DNA of 64,000 nt from Candidatus Doudnabacteria bacterium (GCA_041644975.1 JBAZQX010000003.1:7530-71529); one strand, 5' to 3'. Positions 60,254 to 64,000 are shown, counted from the stretch's first letter. The notes: generated from the letters alone by a model not told the origin. Program-made: numbers and translations.

Positions 60254-60704
60254 GAAAAATAGCTAAAAATTAAATTACTTTAGTTATGTTATATTTCATT
60301 TGCTTTATACTTCAGCGAAGCGGATAAAATCGCATACTTTGTTTATTGCTTTGGGGAAACCGCTTCGTCATCAGAGCGGTTTTTTGATTGGTAAAATTTC
60401 AAGAGAGAAGCCAAACTTTTTACTTCACCTCTATTCAAAAAGTTCCCTTTTCTCTTGAATGAAGCCGTTCACGAACAGCTTCATAAATGAAAGAACCTTG
60501 ACAATTGAATAACCCATTAAGATAGATATGAATTTATCTAATGGGGTCAAAAATGATTAGAAAACAAAGGGCGTATGGTGGATGCCTTGACTTAAAGAGA
60601 CGATGAAGGACGTAGCAGGCTGCGATAAGCCTCGGGGAGCTGCCAAGCAAGCTTTGATCCGAGGATTTCCGAATGGGGAAACCCAGCGCGGCAAACCCGC
60701 GCTA

Positions 60705-60833
60705 CCCCTCACCTAAAAAGGATTTTTGTTAAAAAATAGGTATTTTTTCTTATTTTAAAAGGTTATAAAAAATAAGATGGATACTGATTTTTAGCGAATC
60801 GCAAAGCGATTCGTATCCTTTTTAGGTGAGGGG
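60705..60833 (+). mobile_element. 23S rRNA intervening sequence 1, MITE-like, with perfect 18-bp terminal inverted repeats cccctcacctaaaaagga / tcctttttaggtgagggg
   Basis: AT-rich core of about 130 nt with a gaatcgcaaagcgattc hairpin. Inserted in the 5' domain at a helix-9-like position. Paralogous to IVS2 and IVS3. Confidence 0.7.
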
Positions 60834-60944
60834 AGACAACCCGGGGAACTGAAACATCTTAGTACCCGGAGGAAAAGAAAAAAAATCCGCGCTTTGCGCG
60901 GAACATTCCCTGAGTAGTGGCGAGCGAAAGGGGAAGAGCCTAAA

Positions 60945-61074
60945 CCCCCCACCTAGAAAAGATTTTTATTAAAAAAAGATATTTTTCTCGTTTTAAAAGA
61001 TTATAAAAAATGAGATGGATATTGATTTTTAGCGAATCGCTTACGCGATTCGTATCTTTTCTAGGTGGGGGGGG
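60945..61074 (+). mobile_element. 23S rRNA intervening sequence 2 (TIR ccccccacctagaaaaga / tcttttctaggtgggggg)
   Basis: Paralog of IVS1 with the same internal ttttagcgaatcgc..gcgattcgtatc core. Confidence 0.7.
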
Positions 61075-61272
61075 TTATAAGACAAATACGCTATCAGGGC
61101 AACCTGGTACAGAGTTTAACAAAATGCAACTTGCCTAGCAGAAGGCGCCTGGAACGGCCCACCAAAGAAGGTAAAAGTCCTGTACGCGAAAAGCGTTGCA
61201 TCTCTGATGTATCTGTTTCTTGAGTACTACACCACCAGGGAAATGGTGTAGGAAGTCGGGAGTACTACTAAA

Positions 61273-61404
61273 CCCCTCACCTATAAAGGATTTCAGTTAA
61301 AAAAATATTTTATTTAGATTGATCTAAGGGTCAGATAAAATAGATTAAAAAATAATTAGTTTTAGCGAATTGCCAAGCAATTCGTATCCTTTATTGGTGG
61401 GGGG
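61273..61404 (+). mobile_element. 23S rRNA intervening sequence 3 (TIR cccctcacctataaagga / tcctttattggtgggggg)
   Basis: Paralog of IVS1 and IVS2. Confidence 0.65.
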
Positions 61405-62338
61405 CTCCCAAGGCTAAATACTCTTTAAGATCGATAGTGAACTAGTACCGTGAGGGAAAGGTGAAAAGCATCCCGGTGAGGGAGATGAAATAGTATCTGA
61501 AACCATACGCTTACAAAGAGTCAGAGCCGTCCTTCGCTTTTTGCTTCGCAAAAAGCTTCGGAACGGTAAACCCTTCAGAAATTAAAAGAGGGCTTGCCAT
61601 TCCGTAGCTCGTGAGCGAAGTAATGAGCGAAGGATGGTGATGGCGTGCTTTTTGTAGAACGAACCAACGAGTTAGCTGTGTATTGCTCGTATAAGTCCGC
61701 TTAGCGGACGTATGCAAAGTGAAAGCGAGCGTTAATAGCGCGTTTTAATTCATTAGGCAAATAGAATTCTTCTATTTGCCTCAATAATTAAAGGCAGTAC
61801 ACACTAGACCCGAAGCCAGACGAGCTAGCCTTGGTCAGGGTGAACTTTGGGTAACACCAAAGGGAAGCCCGCACCCATTGGTCGTGTAAAGCCATGGGAT
61901 GAACTGAGGCTAGAGGAGAAATTCCAATCGAGTCTGGTGATAGCTGGTTCTCCCCGAAATAGCTTTAGGGCTAGCGTCCTATTTACAAATTTGGAGGTAG
62001 AGCACTGGATGGAGCAGGATGGGATTTCTCCCTACTTGTCCCAACTAAACTCCGAATTCCAAACTTTTATGATAGGGCAGTCAGAACGGCGCGGATAAGC
62101 GCGTCGCTCAAAAGGGAAACAGCCCAGATTCTTATCTAAGGTCCCTAAGTTCAAGTTAAGTGGTAAAGGAAGTGAGATTACAGAGACAATTAGGAGGTTG
62201 GCTTAGAAGCAGCCATCCTTTAAAGAAAGCGTAACAGCTCACTAATCGATCGTGATCTTGCGCCGAAAATGTAACGGGGCTCAAACTTGACACCGAAGAT
62301 AGAGGCCAGAGACGTACCTCACTGCGTTCGGTACGGGC

Positions 62339-62487
62339 AAATTTTTAATTTTTAATTTTTAATTTTTAATCAATTTTCAATGATTTAATGCTTAAATTTT
62401 TAAACTCAATAGAATAAAGAGTTTGAAAATTAAGCCATTAAGAAATTGGGATTTGTTTGAAAATTAGAAATTGAAAATTAGAAATTG
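62339..62487 (+). other. AT-rich insertion in the 23S rRNA at a helix-45-like position (aatttttaatttttaa ... gaaaattagaaattgaaaattagaaatt inverted repeat)
   Basis: Interrupts the region homologous to E. coli about 1170-1185. The arms are complementary. Confidence 0.6.
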
Positions 62488-63039
62488 CCGGCCGAGCGTA
62501 GCGAGGTGCGGCTTTGGCGGTAGGGGAGCATTCTATATCCAGTAAAGCCAGTCTGTAAGGACTGGTGGAGGATATAGAAGAGAGAATGTTGGTATGAGTA
62601 ACCTAAAGTCCGGTGAGAAACCGGACCACCGTAAGTCTAAGGTTTCCTGGGCAACGTTAATCAACCCAGGGTTAGTCGATCCTAAGTCGCAAAAAACGAC
62701 GATGGAAGAGTAGGTTAATATTCCTACACTACTATTAATTTTGACGGAGGGACGCCACAGGATAGATTTCGTGTCCTAATGGTTTAGGCATTGGTGATCC
62801 GTAGTCGGAAGAAACAGGCAAATCCGTTTCTTCAATTTCAAACGGCGAAGATTATCAAAAGGTTTATTCCGCAAGGAATAGATCAATGAAATTGATTCCA
62901 GTGGCCAAGAAAAACTCCTAAAATTAGATTAATAGTACTCGTACCGTAAACCAACACAGGTAGACGGGTAGAGGATACCAAGGTGTTCGGGTGATCCTTA
63001 GCTAAGGAATTCGGCAAAACAACTAGGTGTAAGTTCGCA

Positions 63040-63290
63040 AGATACCTTGCCTCGGAACATTTCGCTTTCGCTTCGTGTTTCTTAAGAAATCCCAAAAATC
63101 AAGCGCCAAGCAACAAACAAATTACAAACAGAAAAATTCCAAGCTTAAAAGGGTTTGGAATTTAGGAAATTGAAATTTGAGATTTGTTTAAAAATTGTCT
63201 CGCTATGCGAGATCTGGCGAAGCCAGAAAAATTATGATTTGGGATTTGGAACACGAAGCGCTAGCGGAGTGCGACCGGGGTCGCAGTTAA
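63040..63290 (+). other. Expansion segment in 23S rRNA domain IV (about 250 nt where E. coli has about 100 nt)
   Basis: Lies between GGAAUUCGGCAAAACAACUAGG and GACUGUUUACCAAAAACACAGG. Contains aaatccc...gggattt-type complementarity. Confidence 0.5.
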
Positions 63291-63447
63291 AGATCCAGGA
63301 CGACTGTTTACCAAAAACACAGGTCCCTGCAAAGCCGATAAGGCAAAGTATAGGGGCTGACGCTTGGCCAGTGTCGGAACGTTAAGAGCGGGGGTGAAAG
63401 CTCTCGCTTTAAGCGCCGATGAACGCCGGCCGTAACTATAACGGTCC

Positions 63448-64000
63448 TATGGTAATTTCGTTGCCATAGTAAAATCTGGCTATATGCTGGAACATCTGGA
63501 GAATCTAGTGCTACTATGGTATAATTGAACCATAGATTAATTATCTATAAAATTATGCCAGGTAAAAAAGCATCTAGTGTGCTAAATAAAATAGCGCCAG
63601 ATAATCAGCAGGAAAGACTAATAACTATTGGTTGGATTATTGGATTTACTGATGGTGAAGGGTGCTTTACGGTTAGTTTAATTAAAAATCCGACCACAAG
63701 AACAGGACACCAAATATTTCCTGAATTTGTTGTCACGCAAGGTGAAAAGAGTATAAGTGTATTGAAAAAAATGCAAAAATTCTTCAATTGTGGAAAGATA
63801 TTCGTGAATCGAAGACATGATAATCATAAAGAAAATTTACACAGATATTGCGTGAGAAGCATAAAAGACCTCAATGAAAAAATCATTCCATTCTTCATTG
63901 AAAATGAGTTGAGAACAGATAAAAAAAGAGATTTCAAGAATTTTGCAATTATTCTGAATATGATGAAAAAGAAAAAACACTTATCTAAAAAAGGCTGCAA
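63448..64000 (+). mobile_element. Group I intron inserted in the 23S rRNA after GGUCCUA (E. coli position about 1917), encoding a LAGLIDADG homing endonuclease; truncated by the window
   Basis: Conserved 23S sequence stops at ...aacggtccta. The ORF follows within the intron. Confidence 0.7.
63555..64000 (+). CDS. LAGLIDADG-family homing endonuclease (intron-encoded), 3'-partial
   Basis: MPGKKASSVLNKIAPDNQQERLITIGWIIGFTDGEGCFTV... The LAGLIDADG-type motif is IGFTDGEGCF. The frame is open to the end of the window. Confidence 0.75.
   Translation, partial: MPGKKASSVLNKIAPDNQQERLITIGWIIGFTDGEGCFTVSLIKNPTTRTGHQIFPEFVVTQGEKSISVLKKMQKFFNCGKIFVNRRHDNHKENLHRYCVRSIKDLNEKIIPFFIENELRTDKKRDFKNFAIILNMMKKKKHLSKKGC

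Follow-up and report, generated by a model that had tools for sequence, protein, structure and literature searches.

Group I introns and hairpin repeat families in a heavily interrupted 23S rRNA gene of a Candidatus Doudnabacteria contig

Background

The 64,000-nucleotide stretch of DNA analysed here (Candidatus Doudnabacteria bacterium, GCA_041644975.1 JBAZQX010000003.1:7530-71529; the window below) ends in a 23S rRNA gene loaded with extra sequence, and raises the question of whether the extra segments are ordinary lineage-specific expansion segments present in all relatives or mobile inserts, and of what kinds. The inserts were found not to be universal among relatives, and intron catalytic cores were detectable. 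The best explanation, to which we give a probability of roughly 0.7, is a single-copy-style 23S gene of the Candidate Phyla Radiation (CPR), transcribed apart from 16S and colonised by two kinds of selfish insert, namely group I introns and hairpins of the intervening sequence (IVS) type. The observations that carry it are the anatomy of the gene, the paralogy and covariation of its short inserts, the termini that these share with genes for GIY-YIG nucleases, and the presence or absence of inserts in a close relative, in which two sites are differently occupied.

Insertion sequences in CPR rRNA genes were reportedly described by Brown et al. in 2015. In a recent survey, 82% of CPR 23S genes carried inserts, with maxima of 16 inserts and 5.75 kb per gene; group I introns clustered in the 3′ half, LAGLIDADG_1 genes occurred at position 1931 and other sites, GIY-YIG open reading frames (ORFs) were found in non-intron rRNA inserts, and short ORF-less inserts at classical IVS sites were called 'uncharacterized' (Tsurumaki et al. 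2024, J Bacteriol, PMC11270868). The terms 'inverted repeat', 'palindrom' and 'repeat' never occur in the main text of that survey, and a literature search on miniature inverted-repeat transposable elements (MITEs) or palindromic elements in bacterial rRNA or RNase P RNA, and on GIY-YIG elements flanked by terminal inverted repeats (TIRs), found nothing matching. A heavily interrupted CPR 23S gene is already a documented phenomenon; that its short inserts form repeat families with a link to GIY-YIG genes appears to be undescribed.

The 23S gene and its insert load

The parent sequence is a 102,972-bp ENA metagenome contig assembled with MEGAHIT (ERZ27249422). Locus L001 overlaps the window exactly and reaches on to window-equivalent 70073. 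The 5′ part of the gene and its leader comprise:

60226-60253, plus strand: promoter-like site TTGACA-16-TATAAT, 12 of 12 consensus matches, about 300 nt 5′ of the 23S start
60536-60558, plus strand: 5′ strand of the 23S processing stem, pairing with the 3′ trailer at L001 18065-18088 (window 67445-67468)
60555-63453, plus strand: 23S exon 1, E. coli positions 1-1931 including the non-intron inserts (Rfam RF02541; MAFFT against rrlH)

Rfam LSU_rRNA_bacteria (RF02541) matched window 60555-63544 with 1325 bits, in agreement with a sequence-only reading that had started the gene near 60545. That reading let the gene run to 64000; on L001 it continues to about 18060 (window about 67440), and is followed by a 5S rRNA gene (86 bits) and then by a tRNA gene (Rfam). 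As the complete gene measures about 6.9 kb and ends at about 67440, the window shows its first 3.4 kb only. No SSU rRNA scored above the Rfam threshold in the whole 64-kb window, in which the other RNA genes are tRNAs only, so that the absence of an upstream 16S gene, also claimed from the sequence, holds. With introns removed, the gene was 65% identical to E. coli rrlH over 2881 aligned positions (MAFFT); a first pairwise alignment with introns kept had misaligned the 3′ third of the gene and was redone. The sarcin-ricin loop, the peptidyl-transferase-centre strands and the processing stem, whose strands ATCTAATGGGGTCAAAAATGATT and AATCATCTTTTGACCCCGTTAGAT are complementary as read by eye, are all intact, and a pseudogene was rejected on these grounds.

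A promoter of its own had also been ascribed to the gene. The site at 60226-60253 fits the sigma-70 consensus perfectly and, like a second TTGACA at 60499, is kept in the close relative (contig L109); it is a putative promoter, by consensus match only. A terminator-like hairpin (about 60360-60388, CCGCT...AGCGG and a T-run), likewise kept in L109, lies about 110 nt past this site and 5′ of the 23S gene, and 60226-60388 could form a small leader transcript or an attenuator. Further upstream, between an MscS-like gene and the rRNA promoter site, 18-nt inverted repeat arms TCCCATCCTCCGTAGCGA and TCGTTGCGGAGGATGGGA enclose 97 nt (window 60083-60215).

The nearest proteins support a CPR (Patescibacteria) bacterium, labelled Doudnabacteria, as the probable host, the origin that had been proposed from the sequence: the protein of the first GIY-YIG gene described below is 100% identical to that of an NCBI 'Candidatus Doudnabacteria' metagenome-assembled genome, and the named relatives of the PNPase are from Patescibacteria, Moranbacteria, Uhrbacteria and Parcubacteria.

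In total the gene carries about 11 inserts of roughly at least 100 nt. Its extra sequence, about 4.0 kb, was the highest among 80 23S loci sharing the L1931 endonuclease, followed by L046 (3.9 kb), L027 (3.7 kb, four introns) and L004 (3.1 kb). At least six insertions relative to E. coli landmarks had been counted from the sequence, and alignment with rrlH places all those named, plus more. The density had also been called high for CPR; it reaches the upper end of what has been published without exceeding it.

Group I introns with LAGLIDADG genes

One intron, with its ORF, starts in the window:

63454-64000, continuing to 64190, plus strand: group I intron 1, 737 nt, after U1931, the sole intron starting inside the window
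63555-64000, with the stop codon ending at 64052, plus strand: LAGLIDADG_1 ORF, 165 aa (Pfam PF00961, 75.4 bits)

Alignment with rrlH placed four group I introns in the complete gene, after U1931, U2262, U2500 and U2593 (E. coli numbering), the last three being 1019, 872 and 290 nt long. All four have U at position -1 and a terminal G, and the Rfam Intron_gpI scores were 66.5 bits for L2262, 48.8 for L2593, 39.2 for L2500 and 28.5 for L1931. The sequence-only reading was right on the presence of an intron and of a LAGLIDADG ORF from 63555; it had placed the insertion at GGUCCUA/AGG, and the site, after U1931, is 4 nt downstream of that call. The junction is GGUCCUAUGGU/AGCGAAAU, with the intron ends reading ...CUAUGGU/AAUUUCGUUGCCAUAG... 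(5′) and ...UUUCG/AGCGAAAU (3′). Read by eye, P1 has 7 bp (CUAUGGU with GCCAUAG) and a U.G pair at the splice site, and P10 has 8 bp (AUUUCGUU with AGCGAAAU).

The boundary after U1931 is proven by the close relative (contigs L092 and L109), because L092 has an intron-less allele. It is empty precisely at L1931 and L2262 (ggtcctatggt/agcgaaat and ggtcgcct/cctaaaagg; the empty site of intron 1 is ACGGTCCTATGGTAGCGAAATCC), and keeps the L2500 intron, with an intact ORF, and the L2593 intron. Its exons are 90-96% identical to this gene, uniformly along its length. Introns 1 and 2 are thus optional elements, precisely absent from a near-identical allele. Position 1928 of the 23S is U in this lineage (window 63444-63453), including the intron-less L092, and A in all 27 other loci that matched the motif search; the guide sequence of intron 1 carries the A that matches the lineage-specific U1928.

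Three of the four introns contain LAGLIDADG ORFs, one of them frameshifted. Those of introns 2 and 3 belong to LAGLIDADG_2 (PF03161; 169.8 and 101.7 bits), and the latter (L001 16639-17227, window-equivalent 66019-66607) is truncated by a +1 frameshift near L001 17030-17060, which is absent from the intact L092 orthologue and reflects either decay of the endonuclease gene or an indel in the assembly. The endonuclease of intron 1 has more than 1200 homologues at 57-68% identity and relatives in at least 567 candidate stretches of GTDB species genomes, mostly Patescibacteria. A CPR homologue, I-ShaI, has been shown to be active (PMC11270868). From what is established for such elements, the introns would self-splice from the transcript, with DNA homing into intron-less alleles by the LAGLIDADG enzymes.

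The apparent density could also be an artefact. A MEGAHIT contig might have merged rRNA alleles or organisms across conserved rRNA segments, so that no single gene has all 11 inserts; short-read metagenome assemblies are well known for chimaeras at rRNA genes, and the contigs of the relative break or look rearranged at repeat copies. We consider such an artefact very improbable. The gene runs without a break into single-copy sequence on either side in a 103-kb contig, its 5′ leader and 3′ trailer make a matching processing stem, its exons resemble one relative to the same degree throughout, the guide of intron 1 fits U1928 of the exon, and similar loads are found elsewhere (3.7 kb extra in L027 and 3.1 kb in L004).

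Inserts at variable helix tips

The non-intron inserts, with tool-derived coordinates (MAFFT against E. coli rrlH) and helix names that follow the standard numbering, are:

60705-60833, plus strand: IVS1, family-A hairpin, 129 nt, replacing helix 10 (H10; E. coli 150-176)
in the window, at about E. coli 229: insert of 15 nt
60945-61072, plus strand: IVS2, family-A hairpin, 128 nt, replacing the hairpin at E. coli about 276-296; fold z = -10.6
61273-61404, plus strand: IVS3, family-A hairpin, 132 nt, within the loop of the hairpin at E. coli 406-421 (H22)
61528-61637 (approximate), plus strand: helix 25 (H25) insertion, about 100 nt, single-copy here
61744-61792, plus strand: hairpin insertion after E. 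coli 653, 47 nt, kept in L092
about 62304-62519, plus strand: helix 45 (H45) AT-rich insert, family-B hairpin, termini CTCACTGCGTTCG and GAGCGTAGCGAGG
about 63052-63280, plus strand: helix 63 (H63, domain IV) expansion, about 190 nt net
L001 15081-15213, beyond the window, in the orientation of the 23S gene: IVS4, family-A hairpin at H79 (nhmmer)

At least seven non-intron inserts therefore lie at variable helix tips (H10, the E. coli 276-296 hairpin, H22, H25, E. coli 653, H45, H63 and H79), among them the AT-rich helix-45 insertion and, as an enlarged H63, the expanded domain IV segment that had been noticed from the sequence. About 29 nt of extra sequence follow further on from IVS2. The basal stem of the H25 insert is rich in G.U pairs (CCGTCCTTCGCT...AGCGAAGGATGG), and the H45 insert and the H63 expansion have a segment of about 50 nt in common. 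The terminal stems of the inserts are perfect or near-perfect over 19 bp, with fold energies of -47 to -64 kcal/mol. In structure the inserts are thus IVSs, located at variable helix tips and closed by long double-stranded stems. In the folded rRNA they would sit at surface-exposed tips, and the 19-bp stems are predicted substrates of RNase III; the inserts would then either be excised, giving a fragmented 23S rRNA, or be kept as expansion segments.

Group II introns and archaeal introns with bulge-helix-bulge geometry were considered for the short inserts and rejected, as there is no Rfam support, no conserved bulge-helix-bulge geometry, and the inserts are simple extended hairpins. Rfam matches to MIR7533, MIR530, MIR6445 and OxyS within the IVSs are far under the gathering scores and were set aside as look-alikes of long hairpins.

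Family A hairpins

The inserts at H10, E. coli 276, H22 and H79 are paralogous, giving four copies of 128-133 nt with nhmmer scores of 105-113 bits. The mean column identity of IVS1-3 is 81%, and their 19-nt TIR CCCCTCACCTAAAAAGGAT matches six times in the window against 0.03 expected, which bears out an earlier claim of three related, TIR-bounded IVSs. The terminal motif occurs 31 times in the 70 kb of window plus extension against 0.87 expected, and a truncated, inverted family-A copy follows the 5S gene. Family A is accordingly MITE-like in being short and non-coding, with 19-nt TIRs and with four full copies and one truncated copy in 70 kb.

The RNA fold of family A is Y-shaped, with a 19-bp terminal stem, an AT-rich arm and a 9-bp sub-terminal hairpin, and the fold z-scores of the copies range from -6.3 to -10.6 (IVS1, -59 kcal/mol and z = -9.5). 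Covariation over the four copies was strong: 98.2% of cells were paired, and 7 of 28 pairs showed compensatory double changes, which was equalled in none of 500 shuffles, while pairing in slid controls fell to about 50%. One G.U pair in the sub-terminal hairpin never varies, a hint of RNA-level selection on family A.

Within an SMC-like ORF (window 2344-4950), the part that encodes the head domain contains a palindromic insert of 102 nt, CCCCCCACCCAAAA...TTTTGGGTGGGGGG (2650-2751), which keeps the reading frame (34 codons) and is weakly matched by the family-A covariance model (E about 0.04).

Relatives and other genomes

The family-A covariance model finds the H22 and H79 copies of the close relative with 84-87 bits, against about 50-53 on the opposite strand; IVS3 accordingly has an orthologous copy in L092/L109. 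At two other sites the occupancy differs, the relative holding an AT-rich element at the IVS2 site and another insert at H10. The latter (L109_rc 455-673) is 218 nt long, has perfect 20-nt terminal repeats CCCGCCCAAATTTTTGTTCT and the same flanks as IVS1, and is a third family of hairpin elements.

No family-A match was found by nhmmer among 80 other 23S loci, and family A is thus lineage-restricted in sequence; analogous families exist. The exact 3′ end of family A, TTCGTATCYTTTNTNGGTGRGGGG, likewise had no match in GTDB genomes or JGI metagenomes, because the pattern was too strict, the copies of the relative reading CTCGTATCC. A looser two-TIR pattern found 21 JGI metagenome loci with hairpins of 126-146 nt that have the same TIRs and unrelated interiors, three of the 21 in 23S genes, at H22 or H25. 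A locus with an RNase P RNA gene (L090 4541-5349; 127.6 bits) has three copies with the same termini, at the P3 position, inside the RNA and directly 3′ of the gene, with interiors that are nearly identical by eye.

The termini of family B, CTCACTGCGTTCG and GAGCGTAGCGAGG, pair mainly by G.U. They occur at least four times in L092/L109 (at H25, at H45 and even within the L2593 intron), and five times in and around the 23S gene of an unrelated Parcubacteria genome (L042). Two further loci, L034 and L037, have paralogous hairpin inserts at two sites each. From family B in these two lineages and the paralogues in L034 and L037, repeat-family IVSs look general in CPR 23S genes.

GIY-YIG genes with the same termini

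The window also contains the following element:

57611-57927, plus strand: GIY-YIG element #1, an 86-aa ORF (57642-57902) between TIRs CCCCTCACCCAGAAAG (57621 and 57919)

The ORF has a GIY-YIG domain (Pfam PF01541, 58.7 bits) and stands at the 5′ end of a tRNA gene (target GGGNNNNTAGC/TCAG), of which the first 11 nt, GGGCGGCTAGC, are duplicated (57611-57621 and 57917-57927). The 16-mer CCCCTCACCCAGAAAG that flanks it is identical to the end of IVS4, the H79 copy. Exact-protein look-ups for this protein, one with the window sequence and one with P0121, matched no contig. Homologues in other genomes (66-86% identity) have the same termini and 11-12-nt duplications at four different tRNA genes. 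In all, five independent CCCCTCACCCAGAAAG-bounded GIY-YIG insertions at tRNA 5′ ends were found (the window, L084, L111/L120, L125 and L127), each with a second copy of the initial 11-12 nt of the tRNA upstream; in L127 this upstream copy includes part of the 3′ repeat. In a further locus, L020, a GIY-YIG ORF between 19-nt TIRs CCCAGCACCTAACAAGCTT occupies the exact IVS2 site of a 23S gene (gcctaaa/.../ggtt). In all six cases the ORF points the same way as its host tRNA or rRNA gene. The proteins are 78-86 aa long and comprise the catalytic domain only; the nearest structures are those of UPF0213 proteins (PDB 1zg2, E = 6e-8, and 1ywl).

Three GIY-YIG ORFs occur in the 70 kb, the third (14819-15061) inside a cluster of the terminal motif. 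Clusters of CCCTTCACC...GGTGAAGGG hairpins (often GGGTTGACCCTTCACC) lie at window 14662-15227, where they surround this third ORF, and at further intergenic positions (21188-21265 and 10080-10276); they resemble REP-like repeats (repetitive extragenic palindromes).

The link of the IVSs to a GIY-YIG MITE family, which the sequence-only reading had proposed, is thus statistically solid in the shared 16-mer. Strict MITE membership of the rRNA copies is not established, as they are without target-site duplication and may arrive by a different route.

The hairpins could be mobile and yet be moved by an enzyme other than the GIY-YIG nuclease, for instance a REP-associated Y1 transposase of the RAYT kind that acts on hairpin DNA, or spread only through recombination between helices, with the GIY-YIG gene as a passenger that uses the hairpin for excision from highly expressed RNA-gene transcripts. 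In L111-L119 (e.g. L111 1599-2318), a 239-aa ORF with a weak Pfam match to Y1_Tnp (IS200/RAYT-like) lies directly 5′ of the TIR-flanked GIY-YIG gene and near a LAGLIDADG_1 ORF; its product might mobilise the hairpin repeats instead. The uniform co-orientation of the GIY-YIG ORFs, which have no obvious promoter of their own, fits read-through from the host gene, and that the protein is a minimal catalytic domain also speaks for this explanation. We nevertheless regard this explanation as unlikely: a Y1 transposase homologue was sought in the 70 kb and near the JGI hairpin loci and none was found, the termini and a GIY-YIG ORF occur together at the five tRNA sites and in L020, and of three GIY-YIG ORFs in 70 kb one lies within a terminal-motif cluster.

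Origin of the hairpin inserts

With termini common to the tRNA-inserted GIY-YIG genes, the family-A copies would best be read as ORF-less derivatives of a hairpin-bounded mobile element, which persists in genes for structural RNAs because a helix tip can accommodate one more hairpin. It is tempting to speculate that the GIY-YIG protein would mobilise such hairpins. Tentatively, and at well under even odds, we propose that the short 'uncharacterized' inserts of CPR rRNA genes belong to an unrecognised class of prokaryotic mobile element, bounded by TIR hairpins, whose autonomous form would encode only a minimal GIY-YIG nuclease and would insert at tRNA genes with an 11-12-bp duplication, whose ORF-less derivatives would occupy helix tips of 23S and RNase P RNA, and whose terminal stem would double as an RNA excision signal by which the host RNA stays functional.

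Several observations weigh against a mobile origin of the inserts, or against parts of it. Intron 1 matches RF00028 with 28.5 bits (E = 3.5e-5) against a gathering score of 50, and in its 3′ half only, because the ORF splits the core. The IVS elements resemble the GIY-YIG element over the outer 16-19 nt only; no GIY-YIG gene was found in a search near the 21 JGI hairpin loci; and the GIY-YIG proteins have no DNA-binding domain, making any transposase or homing role putative. The contigs of the relative are short, and repeats may have caused mis-joins near the IVS2 site. Target-site duplications are absent at all four rRNA copies and at the L020 copy, unlike the tRNA-associated, ORF-bearing members. 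Finally, all four full family-A copies in 70 kb sit in one gene, which fits intragenic duplication too.

By that alternative, a lineage-specific expansion helix was duplicated within the gene or spread by gene conversion, and was kept as a Y-shaped RNA module used by the host, perhaps for protein binding or assembly, the likeness to the GIY-YIG flanks being secondary. The single orientation of the four copies, the missing duplications, the strong covariation of both helices and the invariant G.U pair of the sub-terminal hairpin, indicative of RNA-level selection, and the retention of the H22 and H79 copies in the close relative all agree with it. Against it, the same termini bound unrelated interiors at 21 other metagenomic loci, recur in RNase P RNA and surround GIY-YIG genes at tRNA sites in several genomes, the close relative has other elements at H10 and the IVS2 site, and a truncated inverted copy lies in the spacer after 5S. 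On balance we judge intragenic duplication quite unlikely, and prefer colonisation of the gene by group I introns and IVS-type hairpins.

This reading offers an account, here and in several other genomes, of those CPR rRNA inserts, roughly half of the total, that are not introns and carry no ORF: such inserts are a few families of hairpin repeats with conserved termini, which would move between helix tips and turn over between close relatives. Should the GIY-YIG link prove causal, bacterial mobile elements would gain a new kind, and rRNA expansion segments a testable route of origin; the occupied sites H25, H45, H63 and H79 are also sites of eukaryotic expansion segments. In practice, rRNA-based binning, primers and covariance-model annotation fail on these lineages because of such inserts. 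The repeat-family inserts and their GIY-YIG and structural-RNA connection merit a focused comparative study.

Apart from these elements, a C-rich sequence of about 30 nt, CCTCCCCCTCCACCTCCCCCTCGGGCAGGGG, is found in two different ORFs of the window (7940-7975 and 18336-18370).

Comparison with known systems

Classical 23S IVSs, such as those at H25 and H45 of Salmonella, in Leptospira and at H9 of alpha-proteobacteria, are removed by RNase III with no subsequent ligation; they are viewed as selfish elements that spread by horizontal transfer, and an ORF is present in some. The H45 IVS of Coxiella is cut out by RNase III without ligation as well (PMC4990558). The inserts of this gene resemble the classical IVSs in being hairpins at variable helix tips, including H25 and H45, with long basal stems and a sporadic distribution. 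They differ in that the classical ORF encodes an S23p (23S_rRNA_IVP) protein, whereas the ORF here is GIY-YIG, and in number, one or two IVSs per gene being usual and seven or more being present here. We know of no other case of one IVS family at four helices of one gene.

Bacterial 23S genes with several introns are known from Coxiella and Thermotoga. The 23S gene of Synechococcus sp. C9 has three LAGLIDADG group I introns (Haugen et al. 2007, PMC1995217). Common to these genes and the present one are several single-motif LAGLIDADG introns at conserved LSU sites with a patchy distribution that implies homing; the present gene differs in having four introns in addition to its IVS load, and its L1931 endonuclease family is very common in Patescibacteria.

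Short palindromic, MITE-like repeats that invade genes are represented by the Rickettsia palindromic elements, the Correia elements of Neisseria, whose transcripts are cut by RNase III, and REP/RAYT. As in those systems, the units described here are short, multi-copy TIR hairpins tolerated within functional genes, with stems of a type that RNase III cuts, and the in-frame copy in the SMC-like gene may parallel the Rickettsia elements. Differences lie in the terminal motif, in the associated enzyme, which is a GIY-YIG nuclease instead of a DDE or Y1 transposase, and in the strong bias of the copies to helix tips of structural RNAs; the copies in rRNA also lack a target-site duplication.

With the GIY-YIG homing endonucleases (I-TevI and the Seg proteins) and UPF0213/YhbQ, the proteins have the catalytic domain in common, and mobile inserts in RNA genes are a further shared trait. 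In contrast to I-TevI and Seg proteins, those described here comprise the catalytic domain only, and their genes lie outside introns, are bounded by inverted repeats and are accompanied by 11-12-nt duplications of tRNA genes.

The closest parallel in kind is offered by the CPR rRNA inserts surveyed by Tsurumaki et al., which likewise include group I introns, LAGLIDADG_1 at L1931, GIY-YIG inserts and short ORF-less inserts. In comparison with that survey, the short inserts of the present gene are TIR families, A and B, found at several helices of one gene, and these short-insert families share termini with GIY-YIG genes and occur also in RNase P RNA.

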